DNA of 64,000 bases from an uncultured Planctomycetota bacterium (lineage in GTDB: Bacteria; Planctomycetota; Planctomycetia; Isosphaerales; Isosphaeraceae), in the NCBI GenBank assembly GCA_963737655.1, contig CAVTTN010000002.1, forward strand, positions 2,976,001-3,040,000, in the 5' to 3' direction. This document shows positions 28,117 to 64,000 of this stretch, piece after piece. A program made the position numbers and the translations under genes. The notes beneath the pieces were generated by a model, which was not told the DNA's origin, did not search any database, and saw nothing but the letters and a program-made list of their open reading frames with translations. The stretch's first letter is position 1. Every line of letters begins with the position of its first letter.

Positions 28117-28167
28117 ATTTCTCTCACATCCTTGTTTTGTGGCTCGTTTTGGGTCTTACCTGCTTAA

Positions 28168-34300: not shown

Positions 34301-34820
34301 GAGCGCCCAGGAAGGGCTGCCCGAAGACCAGTGGTGCTACCCCAGGGAGTTCGGGCCCGGCTCGTCCCTCCCCGCGGACTTCCTGGATCGGACCGGCTAT
34401 CGGCTGCCGACCGAGGCCGAATGGGAATTCGCGTGCCGGGCGGGCACGACCTCCGCGTACCCGTTCGGCCAGGCCGTCTCCTGGCTCCCGAACTATGCCT
34501 GGTTCGAGAAGCAGTCGGGCATGACCATGAAGCGAGTGGCCCAGCTCGAGCCCAATGACCTCGGCCTGTTCGACATACTGGGCAACGCCTATGAATGGGT
34601 CAATGACCCCCACGAGCCCTACCCGCTCGATCCCGCGGGCAAGCCGGTCCTGGACATCCTGAGGAACCTGAACTGTCCCGAGGATTTGGTCCGGGTGATC
34701 CGAGGAGGGGCCTATCCGCTGGCCTCGGCGTCGCTCCGCTCGGGCTATCGCTCGTTCGGCCTGAAGCCGTCCTTCCGATACCCCTATTTCGGCTTCCGGC
34801 CCGCCCGGACCCTGCCCTGA
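31365..34820 (+). CDS. Ser/Thr protein kinase with TM segment and C-terminal formylglycine-generating-enzyme (SUMF1/EgtB/PvdO)-like domain
   Basis: RGGLGEVF, VALK, HRDIKPRN, DWGLAK, GTPAYMPPEQ; YRLPTEAEWEFACRAG, PNDLGLFDILGNAYEWV, RVIRGG, FGFRPART. Confidence 0.95.
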   Translation: MSSVHSDLNLLFGVLALQMEFVSRDQLVSAMNLWVLDKAKSLGQIMREQGVLVDSRLSMMETLVSEYLRSHDDDPEQSLAAMGASETVVQALASLGDAEVAASIGRLGRSRAETEPEDGATQSYRSVIDQRPFGRFRLLRFHDRGGLGEVFVARDDEVGREVALKQIRPDHADDPPGRSRFLLEAEITGGLEHPGIVPVYGIGIQEDGRPFYAMRFIRGVSLREAISKFHASAASGSDPGRRSLELRTLLDRFLDVCDAIAYAHSRGVIHRDIKPRNIMLGPFGETLVVDWGLAKMIGRIEDPTLFAEATLTPESGSQLEATLPGQRIGTPAYMPPEQAAGRLDEIGPRSDVYSLGATLYTILAGRPAFQDSDVPSMLRRVERGEFDPPRRVWPWVDRALDAVCLKAMAVRPEDRYGSPRALAEDIKKWMADEPVSAWKEPRSRRLSRWARQRQTLVTSSAVAAVLVLSVLGYLGYEERLREGRRLTGALARVEALETAQTLALPVIVRQLGPDIALVRDRLKRMAAGDGSDRDGRRRLPAALALLVEDPSQADFLTRFLLSPEPGPAEVLVIREALAEFGPEGSAEPFRKALAADPGELDDVQLRAAGVLAGLDPSEAARDALAGPLARKLVTENPLLLGTWSQVFQPVSRGLIEPLRMLFAETSRPESRDRAFRLLLEFIDRPENASHPEDLASLLIDADPDRAHLVIRRLGSPLERARAVAALAPLLDDVARFDAPKAARQGRIATALFLLGEAGRVWPLFAQRDDPSVRTELVHNLAPYGVDVSKVMGRLRTEPDASARRALLLSLGGFAPDRIAAPARRDWAADLLKRYRADSDPGVHSAIGWLLRTRWGLATDVETADHELQSSQIPADREWFVNGQGQTYAIVRGPLTFRMGSTPLAVPDLQPSEPDHPRRLPRSFAIANREVTMREFGRFLDTRPPGVTDNRSDPLYKSLAPDCAAAAMTWFEATRYCNWLSAQEGLPEDQWCYPREFGPGSSLPADFLDRTGYRLPTEAEWEFACRAGTTSAYPFGQAVSWLPNYAWFEKQSGMTMKRVAQLEPNDLGLFDILGNAYEWVNDPHEPYPLDPAGKPVLDILRNLNCPEDLVRVIRGGAYPLASASLRSGYRSFGLKPSFRYPYFGFRPARTLP

Positions 34821-34962: not shown

Positions 34963-36357
34963 GTGAGGCCCGCCCCCGTGATGGAGACCGCCCCGGCTGG
35001 CCGAAGGTCGCCTGGCCCGCGGATCGAGACCACGCCGAGGTCGCTTGCCGCGCCCGGGCCCTTCGGGGATCGGTGCGACTCGCGGAAGTACTCGACGATC
35101 GGCGTCGAACGGACCATCCCTCCGGCCGAGACGATCCGTCGCGTCGCGCCCCTGCTCGCACGGATCGGCGTGACCCGGGTCGGCGAGGTCACCCATCTCG
35201 ACCGCAACGGCCTGCCGAACTTCGTCGCCGTGAGGCCCCGCGAGGCCGGCCGAGGCATCTCCTATTACAACGGCAAGGGGGCGACCCGGACCCAGGCGAA
35301 GGCCAGCGCCATGATGGAGGCGGTCGAACGCGTTAGCGCCGAGACGTGTGCTCTCCCCGTGATCCGATCGTCGTTCCGGCGGCTCCGCCGCGAGGCGGAC
35401 GCCATCGACCCGGAGGAGCTGCTCGCCCCGAGGGCCCGGAGCGGCCCTCCGGGAGAGGTCGAGCTCGAATGGGTGCTCGGCCAGGACGTGATCGCGGGAT
35501 ACCCCCGATACGTCCCTCGGAACGCCGTCGTTTCGCCGTATGATCCCTCCCCGGGGGCCGTGGCGCTCTGGGATTCGAGCACCAACGGGCTGGCCTCGGG
35601 CAACACCCGGGACGAGGCGCTCTGCCAGGCCCTCTGCGAGGTCATCGAGCGCGACGCGATGGCCGTCCAGCTCGCGAGCGGCCGGCTTCGCGGAGGCATC
35701 GAGGCGGTCCTGGAGGGACTCGGCGTCGGGGGCCCGCCCTCAGATCGGCCGATTCCGCCTCGGATCGACTTCGCCACCCTCCCTCCGCGAGCCGCCCGGC
35801 TCGGGAGGCGTCTCCGAGGGGCGGGGCTGGCGATCTACCTCCGCGACATCACCTCGGATGTCGGCGTGGCGACGATCCATTGCGCCCTGGCCGAGCCTCG
35901 CGGGGGCGGGCGATTCGCGATCCACGGCGGATACGGCTGCCATCCCGACGCCCGGGTGGCGGTCGTCCGCGCGCTGACCGAGGCGGCCCAGAGCCGCTCC
36001 GGGTGCATCCAGGGAGGGCGCGAAGACCTGCCGGACTTCGCCGGGGGGCCGCCTCCCCGGATCGACCCCGACGAGGTCTTCGGGCAGGGCGAGCGACGGG
36101 CCTTCCGGGACGTTCGGTCCGTCGAGCATCCCCGGGTCGCCGACGATGTGTCCTGGCTGATCGGCCGGCTCGAGGCGGCCGGGTTCCGGCAGGCGGTCGT
36201 GGTCGAGCTGACCCGGGCCGACCTGGGCGTGCCGGTCGTCCGGGTCGTCGTCCCCCGGGCGGAGACCTGGGCCGCGTTCCATCTCCATTCCCGCCGAGGG
36301 ACGCTCGGCCCGAGAGCGATCCACCGACTCACCCGGGGCATCCACGACCATGAATGA
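34963..36357 (+). CDS. ycaO: YcaO-family protein (TfuA-associated, backbone thioamidation type); start uncertain (34963/34981 or later)
   Basis: GVTRVGEVTHLD, NGKGAT..AKASAMMEAVER, STNGLASGNT..EAL..ALCEVIERDA, GYGCH..RALTEAAQSR..IQGGREDL, VPVVRVVVP. Confidence 0.93.
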   Translation: MRPAPVMETAPAGRRSPGPRIETTPRSLAAPGPFGDRCDSRKYSTIGVERTIPPAETIRRVAPLLARIGVTRVGEVTHLDRNGLPNFVAVRPREAGRGISYYNGKGATRTQAKASAMMEAVERVSAETCALPVIRSSFRRLRREADAIDPEELLAPRARSGPPGEVELEWVLGQDVIAGYPRYVPRNAVVSPYDPSPGAVALWDSSTNGLASGNTRDEALCQALCEVIERDAMAVQLASGRLRGGIEAVLEGLGVGGPPSDRPIPPRIDFATLPPRAARLGRRLRGAGLAIYLRDITSDVGVATIHCALAEPRGGGRFAIHGGYGCHPDARVAVVRALTEAAQSRSGCIQGGREDLPDFAGGPPPRIDPDEVFGQGERRAFRDVRSVEHPRVADDVSWLIGRLEAAGFRQAVVVELTRADLGVPVVRVVVPRAETWAAFHLHSRRGTLGPRAIHRLTRGIHDHE

Positions 36358-37921
36358 GCGCGTGACCCTTTGCAGCGCCACCCTGGGCGAGGACGGCAAG
36401 CGGGAACCGCCCCTCGGCCCGCTCTACATCGCCGGGGCCCTGGAGTCCCTGGGCGTCGAGGTCGATTTCCGCGACTATCAGCTCGCCCCCGGGGCCGACG
36501 GCTTCTCCAGCCGGCATCTCGCCGAATTCCTGGGGGATCATGCCGAGATCGTCGCCGTCTCGTGCTTCGTGGACATGCTCCCGGTGGTGATCGACGCGAC
36601 CCGGAGGCTCCGGGAGGCGAACCCCGAGACCACCATCGTCCTGGGAGGCCCCGGACCCAGCGCCTCGGCCGACCGGATCCTGGAGCTCTATCCCTGGATC
36701 GACGCCGTGGTCCGGGGCGAGGGGGAAGAGACCATCTCCGAATGGTGGCTCCGAAGGCGGGCCGGTCGGCACGACCTGGAACCGATCGCGGGCATGAGCG
36801 ACCGGCGAGGAAGCCAGATCGTGGTCGGCGAGGCCCGGACCCGGCTCCTCGATCTCGAATCGCTCGCGCGGCCCGCCTACCACCTCGCCGAGTGGGACGC
36901 CTACGGATACGCCCGGATCATCACCACCCGCGGCTGCGCCTATCGCTGTTCGTTCTGCGACGTGACCGCGCTCTGGGGCAACCGGAGCGTCTACCGGGAC
37001 GTGGACGCGGTGATCGACGAGATGGAGTTCCTCCGGGACGTCCACGGCAAGAGCGTGATCACCATCGTCGATGACACCTTCGTCCAGGATCGCAAGCGGG
37101 TGCGGGCCTTCTGCGAACGGCTTTTGGAGCGACGGAGCGGGATCGCCTGGTCGTGCTTCTCCCGGATCAACCTGATGTCCCGCGACCTGGCCGAGACGAT
37201 GGCCGAGGCGGGGTGCCGATCGGTCCTCTACGGGATCGATTCGGGGTCGCCGGCCGTCCTGGCGAGGACTCACAAGATGGTCCGCGCCGAGAGCGTCGAG
37301 CCCGTGATCGAGTACTCGGCGGAGGTCTTCGATTTCGTCGAGGCGTCGTTCATCTGGGGCTACCCATTCGAGGACCTCGACGATTTCCGGATGACGCTGG
37401 ACCTGGCCGCGAGGGTATCTCGATGGGCGCCCCGGGTGAACGTCCAGCTCCACCGGCTCAGCCCGTTGCCGAACTCGCCGATCTATCGGGAATATCCCAG
37501 CCCTCTGCTCGAGCCCGATCCGCAGGACCGGCCCTGGCTCCTGCTCCCGGCCGTCCTGCTGGAACCCCGGGCCGAGGAGATCGGCCGACTCGTCCGCGCC
37601 GCCCCGGACGTCTATCCGGGCTTCTTCACCCTGCCGACCCCTGACGAGGCCGAGAAGCGCCGGCTGATGGGCAAGATCAAGCGGACCCTGGATCGGACGA
37701 TCGGCGCCACCCTGTTCGACCCGGAGACGGCCCGGCTCCTCGACGAGGACGCGCCCGAGGTCGAACGCTCGCTGTTCGACGCCGAGACGGACTCCAGCGG
37801 GCGGCTCGGGGTCGGGCTGGCGATCAGCTTCTTCCGCCGGAGCCGTCGCCGACGAGGGGCCGGGTGCGACCCGCTCCTCGGGGTTCGCGGGCCGTCGCTG
37901 GTCCGGGAGAGGAACGGATGA
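36350..37921 (+). CDS. Cobalamin-binding radical SAM protein (class B methyltransferase-like)
   Basis: N-terminal PPLGPLYIAG..IVLGGPG..DAVVRGEGE B12-binding region; TTRGCAYRCSFC (CxxxCxxC); DDTF; YGIDSGS; FIWGYPFE. Overlaps ycaO (ATGAATGA). Confidence 0.93.
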   Translation: MNERVTLCSATLGEDGKREPPLGPLYIAGALESLGVEVDFRDYQLAPGADGFSSRHLAEFLGDHAEIVAVSCFVDMLPVVIDATRRLREANPETTIVLGGPGPSASADRILELYPWIDAVVRGEGEETISEWWLRRRAGRHDLEPIAGMSDRRGSQIVVGEARTRLLDLESLARPAYHLAEWDAYGYARIITTRGCAYRCSFCDVTALWGNRSVYRDVDAVIDEMEFLRDVHGKSVITIVDDTFVQDRKRVRAFCERLLERRSGIAWSCFSRINLMSRDLAETMAEAGCRSVLYGIDSGSPAVLARTHKMVRAESVEPVIEYSAEVFDFVEASFIWGYPFEDLDDFRMTLDLAARVSRWAPRVNVQLHRLSPLPNSPIYREYPSPLLEPDPQDRPWLLLPAVLLEPRAEEIGRLVRAAPDVYPGFFTLPTPDEAEKRRLMGKIKRTLDRTIGATLFDPETARLLDEDAPEVERSLFDAETDSSGRLGVGLAISFFRRSRRRRGAGCDPLLGVRGPSLVRERNG

Positions 37922-38586
37922 GCTCGGAGGCCCCCGACGATCGGCCCTGCGTGTTCCTCGGCCCGAGCCTCCCCCGGGATCAGGCTCGATCGTTGATCGA
38001 TGCCGAGTTCCGCCCCCCGATCCGCCGGGGAGACCTCGCGGCCCTGGACCCACGCCGCGTCGTGGTGATCCTCGACGGCGAGTTCGACCAGAGCTTCGCC
38101 GTCTCGCCCAAGGAGATCCTCCGCCTCCTCGACCTCGGGACGACGGTGGTGGGGGCGGCGAGCATGGGGGCGATCCGCGCGGCGGAGCTGGCCGAGGTCG
38201 GGATGACCGGGCTGGGCTGGGTCTTCTCCGCCTATCGAGAGGGGCGGATCGTGGGGGATGACGAGGTGGCCCTCCGCTTCTGTCCGTTCGGCCTCCACGC
38301 CCTGACCGTCCCTCTGGTGAACGTCCGCCGCTGGCTCGGTCGCCTCGAAGAGGCCGAGCTGATCGACGCCTTGACCTCGGCCCGCGTCTTGAGGCGGGCC
38401 CGCCAGGTCTTCTTCGCCGATCGGACGCCGGAGAGGCTCGACGAGGTGATCGCGACGGCCCTCGGGCCCGAACGATCCGGGCGAATCCGTGGTCTCGGCC
38501 TCGCCGAGATCGGCGACGTGAAGGCGGAGGACGCCAGGTCCGCCCTCCGGAGCGTCGCAAGTTGGGGCAAGGTTCCTCAATCCTAG
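37918..38586 (+). CDS. tfuA: TfuA-like protein
   Basis: VFLGPSL..PPIRRGDL..DGEF..AVSPKEIL..GAASMGAIRAAEL..GMTGLG.VF..Y..DDEVAL..LTVPLVNVR; ATGA overlap with the radical SAM stop. Confidence 0.93.
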   Translation: MSSEAPDDRPCVFLGPSLPRDQARSLIDAEFRPPIRRGDLAALDPRRVVVILDGEFDQSFAVSPKEILRLLDLGTTVVGAASMGAIRAAELAEVGMTGLGWVFSAYREGRIVGDDEVALRFCPFGLHALTVPLVNVRRWLGRLEEAELIDALTSARVLRRARQVFFADRTPERLDEVIATALGPERSGRIRGLGLAEIGDVKAEDARSALRSVASWGKVPQS

Positions 38587-38599
38587 GGAGTTCCGCGAA

Positions 38600-38922
38600 A
38601 TGAGTCCAGCCACCGCGTCCGACGGCCTGAAAGAACTCATCGGGAGGGCGCTCGTCGATAGCGACTATCGCGACCTGCTCTTCGACGACCGCCCCCGAGC
38701 CTTGCAGGACTACGAGCTCTCGGAGATCGACCTGGCCGCGCTCGATCGCCTGGATCGCGAGACGCTCGAAGCCCAGGCCGAGAAGGTCGGCTCCGGCGAG
38801 CTGGTGATCATGATCGCGCCCGAGCCGCGCCTCCGCCCGAACCGACCCCCGAGCCGCCGCCGGAACCGGAGCCGGAACCCGAGCCCAAGCCCGAGCCGCC
38901 TCCCAAGCCCGACGAAGACTGA
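38600..38922 (+). CDS. Putative RiPP precursor: NHLP-clan (Os1348/Franean1_4349-like) leader plus Pro/Glu-rich tail; ~107 aa after correcting a -1 frameshift near 38827
   Basis: RBS gggag; LKELIGRALVDSDYRDLLFDDRPRALQDYELSEIDLAAL leader. The shifted frame gives PPPEPTPEPPPEPEPEPEPKPEPPPKPDED-TGA (stop 38920-38922). Confidence 0.75.
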
Positions 38923-40410: not shown

Positions 40411-40996
40411 ATGCGAAGAACGACTCGCGAGGACATCGCGGTGCTCGAGGACTACCGCGAATACCTGCTGTTGCTGGTCCGCCTCCAGTTGGGCACGCGT
40501 CCTCGGGCCCGGTTGGATGCCTCGGACGTGGTCCAGCAGGCGATCCTCCAGGCCCATGAGCGGCGGGCCCAGTTCCGGGGCGAGACCGAGGGGGAGTGGC
40601 TGGGCTGGCTCCGCGCCATCCTCGCCAACGCCCTGGCGGCCGAGCTCCGACGGCTCGACACCCAGGCGCGCGACCCTCGGCGAGAGCGTTCTCTGGAGGC
40701 CGAGGCTCGATCGTTCGTCGTCGAGGCTGGAGGGCCTGCTCGCCGCCGACCAGACCTCGCCGAGCGAGGGGGCCGTCCGCGGCGAGGAGTTGCGGAGGCT
40801 CGCCCTCGCCCTCGCCCGACTGCCGGAAGACCAGAGGCGAGTCGTGGAGCTTCACTACTTGAACGGCCTGGCCGTGGCCGACGTGGCCGAGCAGATCGGC
40901 CGGACTCGGCCGGCGGCCGTCGGCCTGATTTTTCGGGGATTGAAGCGGCTCCGAGAAATCCTCCGAGACCCCGAGGAGGCGAGCCATGAGCCCTGA
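40411..40996 (+). CDS. ECF sigma-70 factor, planctomycete-specific type; frameshift near 40705
   Basis: YREYLLLLVRLQL..LDASDVVQQAILQAH..QFRG..WLRAILAN (region 2); QTSPSE..LARLPEDQRRVVELHYLNGL..VAEQIGRT..GLIFRGLKRLR (region 4). Confidence 0.9.
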
Positions 40997-43237
40997 TCTC
41001 ATCGCCGAGCCCGACCGGGAAGGACGCCGCAATCAACTGCTCCTGGACTATCTGGAGGCCATGGAGGAGGGCCGCGAACCCGACCGCGGCCAGCTCCTGG
41101 CCGCCCACCCGGACCTCCGGCCCGATCTGGAGGCGTTCCTCGCCGGCCATGACGAGATCGCTCGGATCACGGTGCCCCTGCGAGCCTCGGGGATCGGCGC
41201 GACGAGACCTCCGGGCGGCCCGGCCCGCGAGGGACCGGGCGTGTCATCCCCGGGGATCGGCGAGATCGGCGACTTCCGCCTGATCCGCGAGGTGGGCCGG
41301 GGAGGGATGGGGGTCGTCTACGAGGCCGAGCAGATCTCTCTCCGGCGGAGGGTCGCGCTGAAGGTCCTGCCGTTCGCCTCGGCCATCGACCCTCGCCGGC
41401 TCCAGAGGTTCAAGACCGAGGCGTTGACCGCCGCCCTCGTCCAGCACGAGAAGATCGTGCCGGTTCACGCCGTCGGCTCCGAGAGGGGCGTGCACTATTA
41501 CGCCATGCAATTCATCGAGGGGCAGAGCCTCGCCGCGTTGATCGCCGAGCTCCGCCGACTCCGCGAGAAGCACGCCCCCCTCACCTCGCGGGGTGGATCG
41601 AATCCGGAGGAAGGAGCGATCGTCGCCGATCCAGCCGAGTCGAGAACGGGGAGCGAGACCTCGCTCGCCGCGACGACCATCTCCCGAGAACGGTCGTCGG
41701 ATCGTCGCCGCTACTTCGACCGGGCGGCGGGCCTGGGGCGGCAAGCGGCCCTGGCCCTGGAGCACGCCCACCAGGCCGGGATCGTCCATCGCGACGTGAA
41801 GCCGGGCAACCTGCTCCTGGACCTCCGGGGGCAGCTCTGGGTGACCGACTTCGGACTGGCCCAGGTCACCGGCGATCCCGGGCTCACGATCACCGGAGAG
41901 CTCCTGGGAACGCTCCGATACGCCAGCCCCGAGCAGGTCCTCGCCCGCCGGGGGATCGTCGATCATCGCAGCGACCTTTACTCGCTCGGCGCGACCCTCT
42001 ACGAGCTCCTGACCCTGCGACCTCCGTTCGAGGATCGGGACCGAAACGCCCTGATCCGGCGGATCGCCGAGGAACAGCCCACCCAGCCCCGCGACCTGGA
42101 CCGGTCCATCCCGCCCGAGCTGGAAACGATCGTCCTCAAGGCCCTGCGCAAGGAACCCGCCGAGCGCTACGGGACGGCCCAGGACCTGGCCGACGACCTG
42201 CAACGCTATCTCGACGGCCGGCCGATCCGGGCCCGACGACCGACGCCCGCCGAGAGGCTTCGGGCCTGGTCTCGCCGGCATCCGTCGATCGTGTGGGCCG
42301 GCGCCGGGGCCTTGATCCTGGTCTCGGCCGGGTCGATGGTCAGCACGGCCCTGGTCCGCCGGGAGCAGGCCCGGACCCTGGCCGAACAGAAGAACGCGGA
42401 ATCCGCCTACCTGAGGGCCCGGCAGAGGGCGGAAGAAGCCGAGGCACGCTTCCGCCTGGCCCGCCGATCGGTCGATGAGCTGATCCGGGTCAGCGAGGAG
42501 GAGCTGGCCCATCGACCCGGGATGGAGGGCCTCCGCAAACGGCTCCTGGCGTCGGCCCTGGCGTATTATCGGGAGTTCGTCGAACAGAGGCGGAGCGACC
42601 CGAACGCCCAGGCCGAGTTGCGAGACACCACCCGACGGATCGAGACGATCCTGGCAGACCTGGCGGTCCTCCGGGCCGCCGGGGAACTCTTCTTGCTCGC
42701 GCAGCCCTCGGCGCTGGAGGACCTCCGGCTCGACCCGGTCCAGAGGAGGAAAGTGGCGGACCTCTCCGACCGCGCGGGGAAGCGATGGATGGACGCGTTC
42801 GGCGACCCGGCCCATCGGCCTCCCCCGGCGGAGCGAGTGCGGATCGCCCTGGAGCAGGCTCGGTCCAACGAGGCGGAGGTCGAGGCCATCCTGTGGCCCT
42901 CCCAGAGAGTCCGGCTCCGCCAGATCGCCCTCCAGTCCGAGGGACCGGCCGCCTTCCGAGAACCCGAGGTCGTCGAGAGGCTCGGACTGACCCCCGGGCA
43001 GCGAGAACGCGTCCGCGCGATCGAGGAGGAGTCCTTCTTCGGCTCGATCCGCGACCTGCAAGAGGGGAAGGCGCCGAGGAGGCCGGCAAGGCGGCGATGG
43101 AACGGATCGTGGCCGTCCTCACGGACGATCAGAGGAGACTCTGGAAGGAGATGGCCGGCGAACCGATCCGGGGCCCGTTGAACGCCTTCCCCATGCCGTT
43201 CGGATCTCGGCGAGACCCGAGGCGAGCCTCCCGCTGA
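40986..43237 (+). CDS. Membrane Ser/Thr protein kinase with C-terminal LTxxQ-like helical region; frameshift near 43075
   Basis: GRGGMGVVY, VALKVL, HRDVKPGN, DFGLA, GTLRYASPEQ; hydrophobic segment IVWAGAGALILVSAG; LGLTPGQRERV and VLTDDQRRLWKEMAGEP. Overlaps the ECF gene. Confidence 0.92.
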
Positions 43238-54319: not shown

Positions 54320-55309
54320 TCAGGGTCCGTGGGGATCGCGCCCGGACGTGCATTCGATCAGGAGTTCGCGGAAGCGCTCGCCGGACGGCGAAAGGTCTCG
54401 CCCCTCCCGGCCGATGGCCCGTCGGCAGATTAAATGGAGCCGGATCGGCCGAAATTGCTCGGCCCGGAGCGGACGGGACCACAGGCCGGGTCCGAACCGC
54501 TCGCCGGCCGATCTCGGGACGACCCCGACCCCCAGCCCCTCGGCCACGAACGCCAGGATGGCCGACCAGCCGCCCACCTCGATCGCGATCTTCAGCCCAT
54601 CGGTCACCCCGGCCGCGTCCAGGTCGCGGTCAATCTGCCCCCGGACGGCGGAATCCGGCTCGGGGAGGACCAGGGGGATAGTCCGGAGGGCCTCGGCCGG
54701 CACGGGCCCTTCGGGGAGGGCGCGAAGCGCGTCAGCCCAGTCTTCACCCGCTTTGAGGCTGGCGACGAGGACGAGCGGATCATCGCGGAGATGATCGACG
54801 TGCAAGGATCGGCGGGCGATGGCGCGAATCTCGGCCTCGTCGTGGGTCACGGTGGCCAGGTCGAGCAGCCCGCTGGCCACCCCCTCGATCCGTGATCGCC
54901 CCCTCGTCGTGGAAATCCTCGCCTGGACCTCCGGCTTCTCGCGACGGAGGCGTCGCAGGGCCTCCAGGGCGTAGGTCGCCGCGCCCTCCTGACCGCAGGC
55001 GAACGCGAACTCGGCCTCGCCGCGAGTCCCAGCGGAGAATCGCCCCAGGGCCCGGTAGCGCCGAACCAGCTCGTGGACCGAGGGGAACATCCGCCGCCCC
55101 TCCTCGGTCATCCCCCACGTCTTGCCGTCTCGTTCCAGCCAGGGCGAAGCCACGGACGGACCCGGCCCCTGCAACTGCGACATCCTCTTGGACATGCTCG
55201 GCTGATTGATCCCCAGCCGAGCCGCCGCCTTCGAGGCGTCCCCGCCCTCCTCGATCAGCGTGACGAACGTTTCCAGCAGCTCGAAGCTCAGACTCGGCGA
55301 TCGTGGCAT
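54320..55309 (-). CDS. LysR-family transcriptional regulator
   Basis: LLETFVTL..SKAAARLGINQPSMSKRMSQL HTH..MTEEG; C-terminal DLATV, IEVGGWSAILAFVAEGLGVGVVP. Confidence 0.9.
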   Translation of the reverse strand: MPRSPSLSFELLETFVTLIEEGGDASKAAARLGINQPSMSKRMSQLQGPGPSVASPWLERDGKTWGMTEEGRRMFPSVHELVRRYRALGRFSAGTRGEAEFAFACGQEGAATYALEALRRLRREKPEVQARISTTRGRSRIEGVASGLLDLATVTHDEAEIRAIARRSLHVDHLRDDPLVLVASLKAGEDWADALRALPEGPVPAEALRTIPLVLPEPDSAVRGQIDRDLDAAGVTDGLKIAIEVGGWSAILAFVAEGLGVGVVPRSAGERFGPGLWSRPLRAEQFRPIRLHLICRRAIGREGRDLSPSGERFRELLIECTSGRDPHGP

Positions 55310-55462
55310 GGCGTTAAGCCCCCCGCCATCCGCGGAATTCATTCTTTTTTTTCCAATATCTGGCCGTTCATCGCGTATAGCTTAAGGAGTAGAGAGGGAT
55401 CAGGCAAGGGTGAGGCCCGGAGCCATCGCCCGACTGGCCCGTTCCTGGGGAGGGTTCCTGAG
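55310..55462. promoter_or_regulatory. Divergent promoter region between LysR and the Nudix-TIR operon
   Basis: AT-rich tract aattcattcttttttttccaatat in GC-rich DNA between divergent starts. T-N11-A spacings are present but not diagnostic. Confidence 0.4.
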
Positions 55463-55945
55463 ATGACGATGCCCACGTTCCCCGAAGTCCGCGTGGCGGC
55501 GGTGGCGATCACCCGAGGCGACGAGTTCCTGACGACCTTCAACGGCCGGTGGGGCGGGTTCACCTTGCCGATGAGCAAGAGGCGGACCTGGAGCGACCCG
55601 CAGGTGCCGGGGTCGGAGCGGCACGAGGAAGCCGGCGACGCCGCCATCCGCGCCTCGGCCGAGGCCCTGGGCCGGCCCCTCGGGCCCGACGACCGGCTGG
55701 AGAGGCTGGAACTGATGGAGCTCGAACCGTACCACCAGTCCAACCGCGACGGGGCCTGGAAGAGCTACCGCTTCGAGGTCTTCCGGCTCCGGTTGGCGGC
55801 CGATACCCGGCCCTCGGTCGCGCCCGGGGCGATCTTCGCCTGGCTGTCGCTCGACGCGATGAGGGAGTCTCGGCCGGTCTCGCCCACGGCGATCCGGCTC
55901 GCCGAGGCGATCCGAGGGGCCGCGGTGCTCCGGGGCGAGGTCTGA
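55463..55945 (+). CDS. Nudix-fold protein with degenerate Nudix box
   Basis: VAAVAITRGDEFL..WGGFTLPMSK..EEAGDAAIRASAEALG..WLSLD..VSPT. Same layout as the next gene but lacks the G and REUxEE acidic residues. Confidence 0.6.
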   Translation: MTMPTFPEVRVAAVAITRGDEFLTTFNGRWGGFTLPMSKRRTWSDPQVPGSERHEEAGDAAIRASAEALGRPLGPDDRLERLELMELEPYHQSNRDGAWKSYRFEVFRLRLAADTRPSVAPGAIFAWLSLDAMRESRPVSPTAIRLAEAIRGAAVLRGEV

Positions 55946-55984
55946 GCGTCGAATCCACCTCTCCGGGACATCGGGTGACACGTC

Positions 55985-56437
55985 ATGAGAACGTCCGAAG
56001 CCGCCCTGGCCGCGATCCGAAACCGGCCGGGCGGCGAAACCTTGTGGCTGGCCCGCTGGAACGAGGCGTGGGGCGCGTTCCACTTCGTCGGCGGCCACCG
56101 CCTCGACGGCGAATCGTTCCGCGACTGCCTGACCCGCGAGCTGTTCGAGGAACTCGGGCTGAGCGAGGGGGCCGATTTCACGGTCGGGACCGCGCCGCCG
56201 GTTCGGTTCGATTACGTCGGCTGGTCGCGCCGGGCCCAGGCCGAGACCCGCTATCGGATCGAGATGTTCCCCGTCGATCTCCGCGAGCCCGACGGCCGGG
56301 CGATCGCGAGTCGGACGATGACTCGCTGGCTCGATCGTGAGACAATGGACCGAGGCCGATGCGTCGATGGCCTGCCCGTCAGCCCGACGATGGGACTCCT
56401 GATCGCCAAGGCCAAATGGACCGAGACGGCCCCCTGA
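55985..56437 (+). CDS. Nudix hydrolase
   Basis: GGHRLDGESFRDCLTRELFEELG matches GX5EX7REUXEEXG. Confidence 0.85.
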   Translation: MRTSEAALAAIRNRPGGETLWLARWNEAWGAFHFVGGHRLDGESFRDCLTRELFEELGLSEGADFTVGTAPPVRFDYVGWSRRAQAETRYRIEMFPVDLREPDGRAIASRTMTRWLDRETMDRGRCVDGLPVSPTMGLLIAKAKWTETAP

Positions 56438-56453
56438 CGAGGAGCCCGCGACG

Positions 56454-59400
56454 ATGTTCGACGACGACCGACCGCCGATCCTCCACGACCTCTTCGTGAG
56501 TTACGCCCACATCGACGACCAGGGCGAGAACGCCGGCCACGTCTCGGCCCTCGTCTCCGCCATCGAGGCCGATTACCGACGCTTCGCCGGCTCGCCGTTG
56601 CGCGTGTTTTTCGATCGCGACGAGATCCGGGCGATGGACGACTGGGAAGGCCGGATCTTGACGGGCTTGCGGCACTCCAAGATGATGGTGGCGATCCTTT
56701 CGCCCTCCTATTTCGCCAGCGCCTATTGCCGGAAGGAATGGGAATACTACGTCGAGACCGAGCTGGCCCATGCCTTACCCGGCGATGGGATCGCGCCGAT
56801 TTATATTCTGACTCACCCGAGCTTCGATGCCGATCCGGTCGAGGAAACGCTCCGCCGCTGGGTCCACGACCTTCGGAAGCGGCAGTACATCGACTGGAAG
56901 GACTTCTGGCCCCACGGCTACAGGGCCCTGGAGCGGGAGGACGTCCGCCGGAGGCTGGACCACCTTCCCGGCCAGATCGCCGAGCGGTTGAAACGGTCGA
57001 AGATCCGTCAAGAAAGCCCTCACACCGTCCCCCTGCCGAGCGAGCATTTCGTCGGCCGTCGCGACGAGATGCAGACGCTTCGGCACGACCTGATCCGCCG
57101 TCAAATCGGCGCGATCACGGCCCTCCACGGCATCGCGGGCATTGGCAAGAGCATGCTGGCGTTCGCGTATGCGTGGGGCTACGGCTACGAGTATCCCGGG
57201 GGCCGGTTCCTGATCCAGGCGGCGAACCTGGGAGACCTCGCCTCGGGCGTGATCGCCCTGGCCGAGCGGAAGGGCGTGACGCTCTCCGAGGCCGAGCTGC
57301 GAAGTCCCGATTTGGCTCTCGATCGGGTCAAGAAGGCGTTCGAGGAAGGCCCGGCGGCGCTGATCGTGATCGACAACGTGGACGATCCGGCCTTGCTGGA
57401 CGTCCAGGCGCGGGAGCGGGCGTTGCCCCGGGGGGATCATATCCACGTCCTGGTGACGACTCGCGTATCACCGGAAAACCTGCCTCGCATCCATTGCCTG
57501 CCGCTCGACTCCCTCGAACCGCAGGACGCCCTGAGCCTCCTGAACGAGTTCCGCCCGATCGCCGACTCGCCCCAGGACGACGAATGGAAGGCCGCCCTGG
57601 AGATCGTCCGCCGCCTCGACGGCCACGCTCTGGCCCTGGAGGTGGTGGCGGTCTCGCTCCGCGAGCATCCCGAGGTGTCCTATCGCGAGATGGCCCGGTC
57701 TCTGGAAGAAAACGGCATCTCGCTCCTGGAGGAAGACCTCGGCCCGAGGCGAGGGGCAAGCTCACCTGGCACCGCGAAACCTGCATCGGCAAGCTGCTCG
57801 AACCGACCTGGAATTCGCTCTCGGACGAGGAGAGGAGGGCCGTCGAATACGCCGCGATGCTGCCGCCCGACAACGTGCCGCTCCCCTGGCTCCGCGAACT
57901 GCTCCTCAAGGACTTCCCCACGCTCGCCCAGAGCCGGATCGGCGACCCGATCGCCCGCCTCTTCCAGAAGCTCGAACGCCTCCGCCTGATCGTCGCCACC
58001 GGCCGAGATCGCCAGGACCAACCCCAACCCTCCACCGCCCCCACCCAAACCCGAATTGCCCGGATGCACCGGCTCGTCGGCGACGTGATCCGCCGACAAC
58101 TGGGGAGGGTTGAGGAAACGGCGCGGGAAGAGGTGGTCCACAAGTTCGCCTACGGCCGGGCCGAATGGATCAAGGCGAACTGGGGCAAGGCTGGCCTGGG
58201 CTGGGAAGTGCCGCCTTTGCGTGAGGTGACCCTCGGTCTGATCGACCGAGTCGAGTATCGCGGCGTTTACATGGGAGATTGCATCTCAACGGCATTACTC
58301 CACAGCGGAAGGATGTTCGAGGCCATCTCGCTCTGTCGTCGATCTTCGGAGGCCCTGAAAAAGCTTCTTGATGCAGAACCCGAAAGCAATTTTTACTCCC
58401 GTGAACTGTCAGTGACCTACAACAAGCTGGGCGACCTGGCGCGTTCGTCGGGCGACGCGGCCGGGGCGCGTCGGTACTACGAGGACGGCCTGGCGATCCG
58501 GCGGCGGCTGTCCGACGGCGCGCCCGAGAGCGCCGACTACGCCCGCGACCTGTCGGTCAGCTACAACAAGCTGGGCGACCTGGCGGTGTCGTCGGGCGAC
58601 GCGGCCGGGGCGCGTCGGTACTACGAGGACGGCCTGGCGATCCGGCGGCGTCTGTCGGAGGGCGCGCCCGAGAGCGCCGACTACGCCCGCGACCTGTCGA
58701 TCAGCTACGATCGGCTGGGCGACCTGGCGCGTTCGTCGGGCGACGCGGCCGGGGCGCGGCGGTACTACGAGGACGGCCTGGCGATCCGGCGGCGGCTGTC
58801 CGACGGCGCGCCCGAGAGCGCCGACTACGCCCGCGACCTGTCGGTCAGCTACAACAGGCTGGGCGACCTGGCGCGTTCGTCGGGCGACGCGGCCGGGGCG
58901 CGGCGGTACTACGAGGACGACCTGGCGATCGCGCGGCGGCTGTCCGACGGCGCGCCCGAGAGCGCCGACTACGCCCGCGACCTGTCGGTCAGCTACGATC
59001 GGCTGGGCGACCTGGCGCGTTCGTCGGGCGACGCGGCCGGGGCGCGGCGGTACTACGAGGACGGCCTGGCGATCCGGCGGCGGCTGTCCGACGGCGCGCC
59101 CGAGAGCGCCGACTACGCCCGCGACCTGTCGGTCAGCTACGATCGGCTGGGCGACCTGGCGCGTTCGTCGGGCGACGCGGCCGGGGCGCGGCGGTACTAC
59201 GAGGACGGCCTGGCGATCCGGCGGCGTCTGTCGGAGGGCGCTCCCGAGAGCGCCGACTACGCCCGCGACCTGTCGATCAGCTACAGCAAGCTGGGCGACC
59301 TGGCGCGTTCGTCGGGCGACGCGGCCGGGGCGCGGCGGTACTACGAGGACGGCCTGGCGATCGCTCGGCGTCTGTCGGAGGGCGCTCCCGAGAGCGCCGA

Positions 59401-59887
59401 CTACGCCCGCGACCTGTCGATCAGCTACAACAAGCTGGGCGACCTGGCGCGTTCGTCGGGCGACGCGGCCGGGGCGCGGCGGTACTACGAGGACGGCCTG
59501 GCGATCCGGCGGCGGCTGTCCGACGGCGCGCCCGAGAGCGCCGACTACGCCCGCGACCTGTCGGTCAGCTACAACAGGCTGGGCGACCTGGCGCGTTCGT
59601 CGGGCGACGCGGCCGGGGCGCGGCGGTACTACGAGGACGACCTGGCGATCGCGCGGCGGCTGTCTGACGGCGCGCCCGAGAGCGCCGAGTACGCCCGCGA
59701 CCTGTGGGTTTCCTACAGCAAGATGGCCCTTCTTGCCGAGAATGCCGGGGATTCGGCCGGGGCGCTGGCCTGGTGGCGGCGGGTTTGGGAGACGTTGACC
59801 GACATGAAACGGCGGGGGATGCACATCTCGCCCGGGGATGAGGCTTATCGACAGGGCTTGGAGGATCGCTTCGGATTTGGCCGGTGA
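56454..59887 (+). CDS. TIR + STAND (NB-ARC-like) NTPase + TPR array, NLR-like (~1,140 aa); -1 frameshift near 57745
   Basis: TIR: DLFVSYAH.D..VFFDR..ILSPSYFASAYCRKEW. NTPase: FVGR, GIAGIGKS, LIVIDNVDD, VLVTTR, LDGHALALE, RMHRLV. Then nine 48-aa repeats. Confidence 0.9.
58403..59698 (+). repeat. Nine near-identical 144-bp tandem repeats encoding TPR-like units
   Basis: Unit DLS[V/I]SY[N/D/S][K/R]LGDLARSSGDAAGARRYYED[G/D]LAI[R/A]RRLS[D/E]GAPESADYAR, followed by a degenerate capping unit. Confidence 0.97.
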
Positions 59888-60086
59888 GGGATCGTTCTGA
59901 GCGTGCCCGGAGGGGGTAGGACGGAGCGGTCCCGTCGTTTCCTGGTGGGATGGCATCTCAGTCGGGCAGGCCCTGGCCTGCCTGGCCTTGCGACGACGGC
60001 AGGCCGGGGACTGCTTGGCGGGAAATGGCTGAGTCCCGGCCGATTTTGGACGGTTGATGCGTTATGTTCTCCGGGGAGTTCCGACC

Positions 60087-61564
60087 ATGCCGGTCTTCTG
60101 GACGATCCGGGCTCAGCGGCACTTGCGGCAGGCGTTGGCCGAGGAGCTGGGGCGCGAATTTGCCCCGGCGAGGCCGGTTTCCTCGGCGGGTGAGGTGGGA
60201 GGGAGTTGCCCTGGGGTCCTGGAGGGGCGGATGAGGCACCTCAATGCCATGCTGGCCGAGGCGTTCGGCCAGGCGACCGTCGTGGTCAAGGACCAGGTGA
60301 TCGGCTATCGCCGCAAGAAGGATCGATTCACCCTGATGGTGGACGTTTTCGACCCCAAAACCGCCGCGCCCCTCGGCTCGTTCGTCGTCAAGATCGGCCC
60401 CGAGGACGAGATTCGCGAAGAGGTCCGGGGCTGGGACTGCTGCCGGCCCCCCGGATTGCGGCATGACCTGGTTCTGCTCACGCTCGAACCGAGGGAACCC
60501 GTCGATCATGAAGGCCGGTCGTGGATGTGCCTCGTGTACGGCGACGCCCAGCAGTTCCTCGGGGTGGCCGAGACCCGCCCGTTCGAAGACGTGATGCTCG
60601 AATGCGTCCGCGACGGCGTGCCCAAGCTGCTGTCGATCCATGTCGTGATCGGCGAGCTTTACGACCGGATCGGCCACTTGCTCTATGGTCAAGCCTTCAT
60701 CGACAACCCCGCCCACGCCGACTACGTTCTGGATGTCCCCCGGCTCGACGACGGGCTGAAGGCGTGGGAGGTCGATCCGGCCTGCCAGGCCGCCCGCCGA
60801 GACGCGAGCGTGGTCCAGGGAAAAGTTCCCTATCTCGACCCGGTCGATTACCTCCGCTACGTGCAGAAGTATTCGGCCCATCGCGACGGCCGGGGAAACG
60901 TCGTCCCCCGCGCCAGCCCGATGCCCCGAAGCCGGGCGATTTACCGGCCCCGTTCCCGGTCCCGAGGGTCGTCGATGTCGTGCCGAGGATGCTTCGCGGT
61001 TGCGCTCATGGCGACCTCCACGGCCGGAATATCCTGGTGGGGATCGTCCGCGACCAGGCGATGTGGCCGACGGTGTTCGACTACGAAGACATGGGGCCGC
61101 GGAACCTGATCGGCTGGGACTTCGTGAAGTTGGAGACCGAGATGAAGGTCCGGGCCTATCCCGACGTCTTCCGGGGCAAGGAGCCGATCCCGTTCGCCCA
61201 GGCGATCCGCGAGTTCGAGGCCGACCTGGACGCCCGGACCGAGACATGCCACCTGACCCGCTCGTGGCCCGAGCCGGATGACCCGACCCTGGCCGCCGAT
61301 CGATTAAGGTCGATCCTCCTCGCGATCCGCCGGATGGCCTCGCAGCACCTGGGGATGATCCACGGGCGCCCGAACGACTGGCTGGAAGAGTACTATTTCC
61401 TCCTGGTCTGCTACGGGGTGATCACCGCGAGGTTCGAGAACCTCCAGCATCGCGAACGGATCGGGGCCCTGATCTCGGCCGGGGTGGCGGCGGCCCGATT
61501 GAGCTGGCCCCGGGCCGTCGAGCTGGCCGAACTCAAGCTCCCGCCGCCGACCGACCCCGAATGA
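60087..61564 (+). CDS. Kinase-fold (APH/phosphotransferase-like, TCAD9-like) protein; -1 frameshift near 60920
   Basis: RBS ggggag; FVVKIG..IREEV.GW; AHGDLHGRNILV; VFDYE; WDFVKLETEMK. Confidence 0.75.
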
Positions 61565-61618
61565 GGCCGTCGAAAACCGCGAAGGGCCACGGCGGCCCGT
61601 CGGACCCGAGGAGTCCTG

Positions 61619-62446
61619 GTGATGAATGCGAATAACCCGCCCTGGATCGATGCCGTCCTCCGGGCCCCCTTCCCCAGCTACCGCGCCCCGATGGCGCTGG
61701 CCGGCGAGCTCGGCCGATCGGGCCGGGCCGACTCCCGCGCCCAGGCCATCACGCTCTTGAAGGCGCTCGCCGAGCGATATCCCTATGCCCTGGCGATCCG
61801 CCAGGAGCTCGTCTTCGTGATGATGGAGGCGAACGAGGACGTCGAGCTGATCCTCCACCGGCTCGAACGGGAATTCGCCAACCTCGATGAGGAGACCCTG
61901 TGCCGCTGGGGCCGCCTCTTCAAGGAGAAGGGCGATGGCCTGGCCCGGACGCTCCAGCCGGACCAGGCGGAACGATACTACCGGAAGTCCCTGGAAAAGT
62001 ACGATCGAGCCTATCGGATCCGCGACGGCCATTACCCGGCGATCAACAAGGCGACGCTCCTCCTGATCGTCGGGTCGCTCCGGCCGTTATCGCCCGGGGC
62101 ATCCGAGCCTTCGGAGTGCCTCGAATCGGCAAAGCTGGCGGAGAAGATCCTCACGAGTCGCGGTTCCTGGCGGGCCGAGCTCCCGGCCGATGAGGCGATC
62201 TGGTTCCCCGCGACCGAGGCGGAGGCCCACCTGCTCCGCCGGGAATGGGCCGAGGCGGCAGTCCTCTATCGCCATGTCCTGGACCAGGATGCGCTGAATC
62301 CGCACTCGCGGGCGACCATGCATCGCCAGGTCGAGCGAATCCTAAGCTGCTTCCGCAACCTGAACGTCCCGCCGGCGCCCCCGTTCGACGACCCCGGGAC
62401 GTTATTCGGGGCCGAGGCCGGTCTGGACCCGTTGGCCTCCTCGTGA
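61619..62446 (+). CDS. TPR-S / DUF4071 (MAP3K TRAFs-binding-like) helical protein
   Basis: EETLCRWGRLFK..YYRKSLEKYDRAY..HYPAINKATLLL..WFPATEAEAHLL..AAVLY. Confidence 0.7.
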   Translation: MMNANNPPWIDAVLRAPFPSYRAPMALAGELGRSGRADSRAQAITLLKALAERYPYALAIRQELVFVMMEANEDVELILHRLEREFANLDEETLCRWGRLFKEKGDGLARTLQPDQAERYYRKSLEKYDRAYRIRDGHYPAINKATLLLIVGSLRPLSPGASEPSECLESAKLAEKILTSRGSWRAELPADEAIWFPATEAEAHLLRREWAEAAVLYRHVLDQDALNPHSRATMHRQVERILSCFRNLNVPPAPPFDDPGTLFGAEAGLDPLASS

Positions 62447-62471
62447 ATCCTCTGGGATACAGGATCTGCTC

Positions 62472-62765
62472 ATGTCGTATCGTCCTCAGCCCATCGATAC
62501 CTCGAAGACCGAGCTGCCCGATTCGCTCGTCGCCCTGACGGAGCGGCTGGCGGAGAACACGCACGACGTCTGGGCCGCGCATCGACTGTCCGAGGGCTGG
62601 TCGCTCGGTCCTCGTCGCGACGACGCCTCGAAGACCCATCCGTGCCTGGTCCCGTACGCCGATCTGCCCGAGTCCGAGAAGCAGTATGACCGTCAGACGG
62701 CGATCGAGACGCTCAAGGCGGTGCTCGTCCTGGGCTATGCGATCGTCCCGAGGCTGGAGGATTGA
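62472..62765 (+). CDS. Stand-alone RyR (ryanodine receptor repeat) domain protein
   Basis: YRPQPIDTS..LP..L..LTERLAENTHDVWA..RLSEGW.LGP.RDD..KTHPCLVPYADLPESEKQYDR. Confidence 0.92.
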   Translation: MSYRPQPIDTSKTELPDSLVALTERLAENTHDVWAAHRLSEGWSLGPRRDDASKTHPCLVPYADLPESEKQYDRQTAIETLKAVLVLGYAIVPRLED

Positions 62766-64000
62766 TCGATGACCGAGACGACGGCGGCCCCGGGCCCCGG
62801 AGGTGGCCCCACGCGATCGATTACCACTTCGCGAACCTCCTCCGAAGGCTGGGCGGGGCGTGGTTCCCGTCGCTCGTCGCCCTGGCGATCCTCGCGCTGG
62901 CCCTGGGCTGCTGGGGCTACCACGAATTCGCCGTTCAGAACCGGAAGGTGCCCTCGGCCACGATCACGCTCTACCGGTCCTTGCAACTCTTCGCCCTGGA
63001 AATGCCCGAGACGGAGACCGAATACCCGCTGGCCCTGGACGTGGCCCGGTTCCTCGCGGCGTTCGTCTCGTTCTCGGCGGTCCTGGGCGTCCTGGGGACG
63101 ATCTTCGAGGCCAGGGTCCAGGCCGCCCGGCTCTGGGTCCTGGGGAGGCATCACGTGGTCCTCTGCGGCCTGGGCGAGAAGGGGGCCGAGCTCGTCCAGG
63201 TCCTCAGGAAGGACCGGCATTTCGTCGTGGTCATCGAGCCGGACGCGACTCACGAAGACCTGTCGAGATGCCGGGCCCTTGGGGCCGTCGTCCTGACCGG
63301 CAACCCGACCGACTCCTGGCGTCTCAAGAAGGCGAGGGTCCATCGGGCCGACGTGCTGATGGCGATCGTCCCGGGAGACGACCGGCTGAACGTCGAGACG
63401 GCGATTCTCGCCCATGCGATCTGCCGGAGCCCTCGCCATGGAACGCTGACGTGCGTCCTCCAGGTCTCCGACCCGGACCTCACCACGGTGGTCCGCAAGC
63501 ACCCGATGGCGACCGAAGGGGGCGACGGCTTCGACCTCCAGCCGTTCCGCATCGACGATGCCTGCGCCCAGGCCATGCTCCGCGAGGCCCTGGTCGGCGG
63601 CCGGGCGCAAGTCCCGGGCGGATCCTGGTCGTCGGCATCGGTCCGGGAGCCAGGATGGGCGAGAGGCTGATCCTCAGGGCCGCCAAGGACTGGCACCTGG
63701 AGAATCCCGACGGGCCGAAGCTGCAGATCGACGTCCTGAGCCCCGGGGCGACCGTCGAGACGGAGAGGATGCGGACCTCGTACCCGCCTCTGGACCTCGC
63801 CTGCGAGCTCCGACCCCACGACGTGGCCCCGGAGCCGCTCTCATTCGTCGAGACGTTGGATCGAATCCACGGGGCCCGCTCCTCGTCGCGGCGTTCGTTG
63901 GCCTGGACGACGAGGGCGCCGCCCTGATTGCCGCGGACCGGCTCCGCGATGCCCTGCCCAAACTCGTCCCGGTCATCGTCCGGACGATCGAGAGGGATGC
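62762..64000 (+). CDS. Membrane protein with 2 TM helices and TrkA-N/RCK-type Rossmann domains (channel-like); frameshifts near 63610 and 63885; runs off the window
   Basis: TM LVALAILALALGCWGY; pore-helix-like LYRSLQLFALE; TM LDVARFLAAFVSFSAVLGVL; HVVLCGLGEKG..VVVIE..VLTGNPT..LKKARV.RAD..DDRLN; second RILVVGIG. Start overlaps the RyR stop. Confidence 0.8.

Follow-up and report, generated by a model that had tools for sequence, protein, structure and literature searches.

Known TIR-signalling defence reads its signal through SLOG, Macro or caspase-linked effectors. Here, we describe a bacterial operon in which a TIR gene stands beside candidate readers of a different family, the RyR domain otherwise familiar from the animal ryanodine receptor. 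The operon lies in a stretch of 64,000 nucleotides (hereafter the window; G000:C2:2976001-3040000) of a Planctomycetota genome, G000, with a size of 7.63 Mb in 3 contigs. From position 55463 onward, seven co-oriented genes run divergently from a gene for a LysR-family regulator—and encode, among other products, a TIR-NB-ARC-TPR protein of the STAND type, a small free RyR protein and a membrane protein with TrkA_N and RyR domains. We give about an even chance to the reading that this is a Thoeris-like TIR signalling operon under LysR control, with RyR readers, an RCK channel as the effector, and Nudix and kinase enzymes that would process the signal.

The closest described RyR proteins of this kind come from phages. 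According to two 2026 preprints (PMC13232231, PMC13251945), phage RyR proteins bind or cleave the TIR-made cyclic ADP-ribose (cADPR) isomers 2'cADPR and 3'cADPR. PMC13232231 names residues H75, W78, H100 and D117 for RyDEP and reports that six of the eight homologs tested there bind cADPR isomers, and PMC13251945 describes RyR Tad—gp68 of Pectobacterium phage CB1—as binding 3'cADPR at 43 nM, naming H129, W132, K147, H154, K170 and D171. Like RyDEP and RyR Tad, the RyR domains of this gene cluster belong to PF02026 and have the ligand residues H, W, H and D at the same spacing; unlike them, they are host-encoded, conserved beside TIR genes and, in one genome or another, fused to kinase-TPR-S or a channel, so that their action would serve the cell.

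With Thoeris, the operon shares a TIR with a predicted catalytic glutamate beside a domain that binds cADPR isomers in phage homologs, as well as the would-be logic of a generator, a diffusible ADP-ribose (ADPR)-type signal and an effector. It departs from Thoeris in that its TIR is part of a STAND NTPase that ends in TPR repeats, its candidate readers are RyR domains and its candidate effector is an RCK channel; the operon also has a built-in Nudix pair, a kinase and a LysR regulator. The STAND protein resembles Avs-type and other TIR-STAND-TPR proteins in its N-terminal TIR, its NB-ARC with intact Walker A and B motifs and its C-terminal TPR array. However, its gene is embedded (at a gap of 16 nucleotides, nt) in a longer operon, the remaining genes of which are conserved as a group, and none of the Avs models of PADLOC matched it at E<=0.01. 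The vWA-MoxR-VMAP ternary systems share with the locus the TCAD9 kinase family and STAND NTPases nearby, whereas vWA, MoxR and VMAP were found in none of the scanned loci. On the membrane side, an ortholog of the operon's channel models, like GsuK, MthK, CASTOR and DMI1, as a pore with two transmembrane (TM) segments followed by two RCK domains; unlike these channels, that of the operon lacks a TVGYG-type filter and has an added C-terminal tandem RyR module. Finally, the free RyR protein shows strong sequence similarity to the R12 domain of the animal ryanodine receptor (80.6 bits over 87 residues against RyR2 repeat 1), and the domain sits on a cation channel in both; the bacterial pore and gating ring are, in contrast, of the RCK type and unrelated to the pore of the animal receptor. 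A regulatory ligand common to the bacterial channel and the animal receptor is purely hypothetical. In the literature searched, which left outside it Burroughs et al. 2015 (a study that may cover TPR-S/RyR neighbourhoods), we found no description of this gene set, nor of any TIR system in bacteria that includes a channel of the RCK or RyR type.

Operon layout and proposed signalling chain

Open reading frame (ORF) coordinates, translations and Pfam searches define the following features (E, expectation value; aa, amino acids).

54320-55342, minus strand: LysR-family regulator (Pfam LysR_substrate, E 4e-26; HTH_1, E 1.4e-7)
55463-55945, plus strand: NudA, a degenerate Nudix paralogue; likely ATG at 55463, from ortholog alignment
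55985-56437, plus strand: NudB (Pfam NUDIX, E 4.4e-9), 39 nt after NudA
56454-59887, plus strand: TIR-NB-ARC-TPR STAND protein (TIR_2, E 1.7e-14; NB-ARC, E 1.2e-6; TPR_10, E 5e-49; TPR_12), 16 nt after NudB
58394-59709, plus strand: TPR repeat array within the STAND gene, 9.1 units of 144 nt (48 aa)
60054-61564, plus strand: TCAD9 kinase (Pfam TCAD9 in two pieces, E 4.8e-9 and 5e-4)
61619-62446, plus strand: TPR-S protein (Pfam TPR-S, E 1.9e-11), after a 54-nt gap
62472-62765, plus strand: RyR protein with a single repeat, 97 aa (Pfam RyR, E 8e-36), after a 25-nt gap
62762-64000 and on to ~64560 past the window, plus strand: membrane/TrkA_N channel gene (TrkA_N, E 4e-13), with a 4-nt overlap with the RyR gene

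The ORF list confirms the arrangement that an earlier note on this DNA had described, i.e., seven co-oriented genes divergent from a LysR gene and separated by short gaps, and the domain calls of that note all proved correct (by Pfam and, for NudA, through its homology to NudB). The note had ended at position 64000, within the channel gene that we could follow further. The intergenic gaps amount to 39, 16, 166-199, 54 and 25 nt before the final 4-nt overlap, the third depending on whether the kinase starts at TTG 60054 (gap of 166 nt) or ATG 60087 (gap of 199 nt); the 16-nt spacing between NudB and the TIR gene suggests co-transcription. A promoter and terminator scan returned no more signals than were found in shuffled sequence, and the LysR intergenic regions of three loci gave no useful alignment, so we claim no LysR box. 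The G+C content is 0.65-0.68 across much of the operon as against ~0.70 in the flanks, and 0.73-0.75 over the TPR repeat array. The Pfam scan also found planctomycete-specific families upstream of the operon in the window.

Taken as a whole, the operon may be a patchily distributed signalling and defence unit built around NAD-derived (ADP-ribose-type) nucleotides and a relative of Thoeris-type TIR immunity—a proposal that we regard as evenly poised between right and wrong. Judging from the domain families, the TPR array of the STAND protein would sense a trigger, the NTPase would oligomerise and the TIR would turn NAD+ into an ADPR-type signal. The phage RyR proteins and the residues kept here suggest that this signal would be bound by the RyR modules, namely the free 97-aa protein and the tandem RyR end of the channel. 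The RCK channel—of the GsuK/CASTOR type in the fold modelled from an ortholog, and with a non-canonical pore loop—would be the effector, and its putative gating would change ion flux. NudB with a presumably inactive NudA, together with the TCAD9 kinase and TPR-S, could hydrolyse or phosphorylate the nucleotide, as the gene fusions and the kinase fold hint; such action would impose a threshold on the signal, terminate it or change it into another form.

From its N-terminus to its C-terminus, the candidate generator consists of a TIR, an NB-ARC and a TPR array. Its translation bears out the motifs singled out in the earlier note: the TIR has its glutamate in CRKEW, and the NTPase has an intact Walker A (GIAGIGKS) and Walker B (LIVIDNVDD). 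The glutamate of CRKEW aligns with that of the cLxEL motif in the plant TIRs L6 and RUN1 (weakly, E 0.14-0.2), a residue that we take to be catalytic. A TIR-NB-ARC ortholog from a second Planctomycetota genome, G223, is 43.7% identical over 449 aa (E 1e-115), and the type and position of the STAND protein vary at related loci—NB-ARC here, NACHT and nSTAND1 in relatives. The PADLOC matches of the protein comprise PDC-S66 (E 4e-7, in the TIR part) and a generic TPR model only. Tandem Repeats Finder describes the TPR array as 9.1 near-identical copies (94% matches, score 2280), which suggests that the presumed sensor surface has either expanded recently or evolved in concert. Near-identical repeats of this kind are also prone to assembly error.

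Candidate RyR readers, modelled channel and putative nucleotide-processing enzymes

The free RyR protein scores 122.5 bits against PF02026 (cut-off 27.4) and is 41% identical to gp68 in our alignment, in which its H31, W34, H56 and D73 fall on H129, W132, H154 and D171 of RyR Tad; K147 and K170 of the phage protein are replaced by R49 and Y72. The H, W and D are invariant in all seven aligned RyR sequences, gp68 included; gp68 was the phage protein that entered this alignment, RyDEP being compared by residue spacing alone. The same four residues (H, W, H and D) are present in the RyR repeat of the window's channel, and the family alignment shows the H of the second repeat in 45 of 45 sequences, the W in 41 and the D in 36. 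The earlier note had cast RyR as one of the readers of the TIR product. For phage RyR domains, this role has since gained experimental backing, and the ligand residues are kept here; by analogy with the phage proteins, the RyR modules of the operon may bind a TIR-derived nucleotide.

The genomic placement of TIR genes bears on the same link. Across the whole G000 genome, there are two TIR_2 and two RyR matches, and one TIR along with both RyR domains belong to the operon. G223 has eight TIR_2 matches and a single RyR match, and six of the eight are on the two contigs of that RyR locus; in a third genome, G285, two of nine lie <=15 kb from its only RyR locus. These three genomes are related and may have inherited one cluster, so that they do not represent three independent events.

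We also identified three further Planctomycetota loci encoding RelA_SpoT-TPR-RyR proteins of 870-914 aa (L033 6875-9951; L034 5608-10249; L039 3025-5634), with a Nudix gene adjacent in L033 and L034 and, in L034, a SLOG domain and an upstream patatin phospholipase as well. They look like a second RyR-based nucleotide-signalling system, and their pairing of RyR with a nucleotide-making enzyme, (in two of the three) a Nudix gene and (in L034) an effector that attacks membranes fits a role of RyR as a host nucleotide sensor.

The membrane protein combines a 2-TM pore-like domain, tandem RCK domains (TrkA_N) and a C-terminal tandem RyR module; its four frame pieces together span positions 8-589 of the family profile, and the Rossmann motif GLGEKG is present in the translation. 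The channel family is large, with 992 cluster representatives found at a threshold of E<=1e-10 (some matches may be partial), and a chosen set of 45 near-full-length relatives carries TrkA_N throughout (45/45) and RyR in all but two (43/45). A structural model of the G285 ortholog (pLDDT 87.8), compared by VIA, matched the gating rings of DMI1 and CASTOR with Z ~22 over ~333 residues (root-mean-square deviation ~4), whole GsuK with Z 19.8-20.2 over model residues 29-499 including the pore, and MthK with Z ~14, again with the pore included. The model of this ortholog thus likens the membrane protein to RCK channels such as GsuK and CASTOR, in keeping with the channel role given to the TM-TrkA-N protein by the earlier note. 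The pore loop follows the consensus LQLFxLE-SGxV..P over the 45-sequence family alignment (the window reads FALEMPETETEYP), in which the K+ filter T-V-G-Y-G is absent and no GYG occurs. According to the titles of its structure entries, GsuK was crystallised with NAD and ADP.

At the other end of the operon, the regulator carries an N-terminal HTH_1 and a LysR substrate-binding domain, and a divergent ortholog stands beside NudA on a metagenome contig (L015, 47.7% identity) and on a G223 contig (L038, 42.5%). NudA itself has no Pfam match; tblastn (31% identity, E 5e-8) and an alignment show it to be paralogous to NudB, a homology from which its Nudix fold is predicted. Its box reads RASAEALG, with two of the three box glutamates lost in all four orthologs, and the same four share an 11-residue insert. 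On this evidence, NudA is probably non-catalytic and probably serves as a binding or scaffolding partner. A prediction of the NudA-NudB complex scored 0.00, which speaks neither for nor against binding. NudB, for its part, has an intact Nudix box (GX5EX7REUXEEXGU, reading GHRLDGESFRDCLTRELFEELGL) whose REx2EE is present in 4/4 orthologs, so the Nudix pair of the earlier note stands as far as NudB is concerned and loses NudA as a likely enzyme. NudB is fused to the kinase in the genome G244 (a protein of 927 aa) and in five of the database clusters listed.

The kinase of the earlier note is present, with the qualification that it is not an orphan and belongs to Pfam TCAD9 (PF19974). The two pieces in the window score 36.3 and 19.7 bits, below the cut-off of 40, because the gene is split by a frameshift; kinase orthologs reach 43.9, 66.4 and 64.4 bits. 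A search of the protein database gave 271 kinase clusters, and all 120 of those listed carry PF19974, some being fused to TPR-S or Nudix. The VVK lysine, HGDLHxxN, the DYE aspartate and WDFxKxExE are kept in all or nearly all of 42 aligned kinases. A search of the kinase profile against PDB sequences gave no matches, and a fold model was therefore used. The model of an intact ortholog (pLDDT 91.8) had its best Foldseek matches in APH(3'), choline kinase, maltokinase, MTR kinase and NahK—all weak, with E ~1e-5 and TM-scores of 0.3-0.49—and looks most like small-molecule kinases. Several of these structural matches phosphorylate the anomeric hydroxyl of a sugar. TPR-S (Tetratricopeptide Repeats-Sensor), found in at least 77 further database clusters (the closest among those listed being 55% identical), is fused behind the kinase in G223, G285, G244 and the genome G400. 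The name TPR-S was not encountered as a domain name in the literature searched, and the two supplements of Kaur et al. 2020 mention neither TCAD, TPR-S nor RyR.

Conservation, frameshifts and competing explanations

Synteny with other genomes, the lack of which the earlier note had named as a refutation of its proposal, is real. On the metagenome contig L015, tblastn aligned NudA (43.8% identity), NudB (46.1%), the kinase (48-70%) and TPR-S (48%) alongside the divergent LysR gene. In L020, the tail of a TPR protein, 41.6% identical to the C-terminal tail in the window, directly precedes an intact kinase and TPR-S. G244 (L022) has NudA and one NudB-kinase-TPR-S protein, and G400 (L027) has NudA, NudB and a 780-aa kinase-TPR-S. 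The G285 cluster comprises a TIR gene, DUF4062-TPR, kinase-TPR-S (723 aa), an RyR protein of 102 aa with 67% identity to that of the window, a 675-aa TM-TrkA_N-RyR protein and nSTAND1-WD40. In G223, the first contig (L021) carries a TPR tail, a 789-aa kinase-TPR-S-RyR, a 634-aa protein and a 1495-aa TIR-NACHT, and the end of the second (L038) carries the divergent LysR, NudA, NudB, DUF4062-TPR, TIR, TM-TrkA_N and TIR-NB-ARC. We infer that the two contigs probably join, since L021 begins with a TPR tail. The 634-aa protein (L021 7045-8949), which occupies the position of the channel, matched neither Pfam nor the channel profile. This G223 cluster is flanked by a T4SS-DNA_transf coupling protein (L038 1697-3094, E 8e-63) and an IS4/5 transposase (L021 1177-1911), which hints at a location on a mobile element.

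Gene order held in common, together with the fusions, favours a single functional unit. NudA-NudB-kinase-TPR-S forms the conserved core, and the seven-gene form, of which G223 and G285 have the substance as well, consists of this core module, an RyR/channel module and the TIR/STAND genes. The distribution is sparse: the kinase profile matched 5 of 401 sampled Planctomycetota genomes (G000 included), a single TPR-S sequence matched 10 of 301, and the channel profile matched 11 of 301 at E<=1e-30. In the 301-genome sample, the three kinase-bearing genomes besides G000 (G223, G285 and G244) all have the channel family as well, located in G244 on other small contigs. A TPR-S scan of wider genome contigs produced one weak Bacteroidota match only, a metagenome scan yielded 6 mostly short contigs, and a plasmid collection held no match to kinase-TPR-S.

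The operon is interrupted by five frameshifts, located as follows:

near 57750: one frameshift in the STAND gene
between 60920 and 60989: one frameshift in the kinase gene
~63589-63616, ~63819-63888 and ~64136-64198 (the last beyond the window): three frameshifts in the channel gene

At four of the five breaks, or close by, there is a stretch of four or five consecutive G or C; we saw none at the break at 63589-63616. Within the frame pieces, we saw neither an in-frame stop nor a deletion; the pieces cover the whole channel profile and, apart from a stretch around the break, the intact L020 kinase. Elsewhere in G000, the essential rpoC gene (G000:C2:6635601-6639726) is in two frames, split near its 3' end (rpoB is whole), and genes for an ECF sigma factor, an SNF2 helicase and a hybrid histidine kinase are split as well. 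Given that unrelated genes, including an essential one, are also broken and that the genome is only 87.7% complete despite its 3 contigs, assembly indels are the likelier cause of the operon's frameshifts.

Several observations weigh against a single Thoeris-like pathway. We infer all biochemical steps of the proposed chain; the TIR aligns poorly with TIRs of solved structure (E no better than 0.14), and no ThsA-type effector (SLOG-SIR2 or Macro-TM) is apparent, there being no SLOG, SIR2 or Macro match by Pfam, PADLOC or NCBIfam in 12 pieces. LysR control is more typical of metabolic operons. As the earlier note had supposed, no PADLOC model of a named defence system matched: the window proteins gave weak single-domain matches only (PDC-S07, PDC-S66 and TPR), and NCBIfam showed weak similarity only, to FxsC/FxSxx-TPR and Trk/Kch models. 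In L015, L022 and L027 (contigs of 5-10 kb), the core is present but TIR, RyR and channel genes are not, NudB and the kinase being directly adjacent in L015 with no gene between them, and in L016 and L018 it is another NudA-like ORF, not RyR, that follows TPR-S. The channel family elsewhere mostly stands alone: the five other full-length Planctomycetota channel genes examined (L029, L030, L031, L032 and L036) all lack a TIR or Nudix gene <=7 kb away, and the one in L031 adjoins a type I restriction system. The density of frameshifts, five in the ~8.6 kb operon versus one in ~7.8 kb of rpoB plus rpoC, also counts on this side. Since both core and channel occur without a TIR, one seven-gene pathway is not established and the parts are modular; the interpretation given in the earlier note is partly supported.

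Several of these observations feed the main rival explanation, which we consider unlikely, and in which two unrelated units meet at this locus: an Avs-type TIR-STAND-TPR gene with an NAD-depleting TIR effector, inserted into a LysR-controlled Nudix-kinase-TPR-S-RyR-channel operon that senses an endogenous adenine nucleotide (ADPR, NAD(H) or ATP/ADP) and adjusts ion flux in stress or homeostasis. The TIR-free cores, the channels standing alone among housekeeping-type genes, the conserved divergent LysR and the shifting type and position of the STAND gene would all fit such an arrangement, as would the NAD and ADP in crystals of GsuK, the closest full-length channel fold, and the ATP-type ligands that R12 of the animal receptor binds according to PMC13251945. 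However, in two genomes that belong to different families, the kinase is immediately preceded by an orthologous TIR-NB-ARC-TPR gene (and in L020 by a matching TPR tail), TIR genes are few and yet clustered at the only RyR locus in three of three genomes, and just 16 nt separate NudB from the TIR gene. An improbable alternative makes the locus a kinase-centred conflict system, whose TCAD9 kinase is the effector and phosphorylates host or invader proteins, with TPR-S and RyR as sensors and the Nudix pair and channel as accessories. The TCAD9 name was coined for predicted NTP-dependent conflict systems (figure legend in PMC10910872), STAND NTPases are adjacent, the catalytic motifs are widely kept and kinase, TPR-S and RyR form one polypeptide in G223; yet the best structural matches, weak as they are, are small-molecule and sugar kinases rather than protein kinases, the locus shows no vWA, MoxR or VMAP gene, and the Nudix fusion fits a shared small-molecule substrate better. 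Very improbable, in our view, is that the five frameshifts are real and the operon a decaying, non-functional remnant in G000. Their density relative to rpoB and rpoC and the slightly lower G+C over much of the operon, as in acquired DNA, would agree with decay, but the split rpoC, sigma factor, helicase and histidine kinase genes, the low completeness in 3 contigs, the short G/C runs at most breaks and the frame pieces free of stops and deletions—covering the channel profile and nearly all of the L020 kinase—argue against it.

A more specific version of the Thoeris-like reading is a TIR-to-RyR axis, which we offer tentatively and hold to be doubtful in its full extent. Here, a cADPR-type nucleotide from the STAND-controlled TIR would open the RCK channel by way of its tandem RyR module and switch the RyR-coupled kinase, with the Nudix pair as the off-switch; the animal R12 pocket would descend from a prokaryotic immune-nucleotide receptor, and the phage RyR sponges and glycosidases would be captured host copies. 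If true, a host system reading its signal through RyR, with one reader on an ion channel, would constitute a new effector class, would explain the presence of RyR-domain sponges and glycosidases in phages and would allow the long-debated link between cADPR and the ryanodine receptor to be tested directly in a bacterium. The Nudix pair and the sugar-kinase-like enzyme would likewise mean that the host itself encodes the turnover of its signal, which is rare in systems of this sort; the ring nucleases of type III CRISPR offer the closest parallel. Assigning the ligand would also annotate many proteins, given the number of cluster representatives in the channel family.

Other genes in and around the window

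Beyond the operon, the region holds several further features. On the plus strand, window positions 1059-20678 look coding over ~19.6 kb, with four frames in succession (1037, 642, 2891 and 2011 aa) and no Pfam match at E<=1e-5; they hold either a number of giant genes or a single one that frameshifts have broken up. Positions 22968-29455 contain an IS5-type transposase in two frames (DUF4096 and DDE_Tnp_1) and a Rhodopirellula-type DDE transposase, and between these two lies a broken SNF2-helicase/NOV_C gene, interrupted by an in-frame stop and divided among frames. The gene for the ECF-type sigma factor (40417-43004) extends over two frames, with region 4 in the second, and is followed by that of a 661-aa Ser/Thr protein kinase. 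Some ~5-8 kb past the window end, the hybrid histidine kinase (L003 15203-18421) spreads a PAS/GAF-like N-terminus, a HATPase and a receiver domain over three frames. Finally, a cluster resembling those for ribosomally synthesized and post-translationally modified peptides occupies window positions 35047-38905 and is preceded by a 1085-aa Ser/Thr kinase with an FGE-sulfatase domain (31347-34601). This cluster encodes YcaO (E 3e-73), a B12-binding radical SAM enzyme and TfuA (E 2e-36), together with a small ORF that weakly matches Frankia_peptide at 33.5 bits (cut-off 48).

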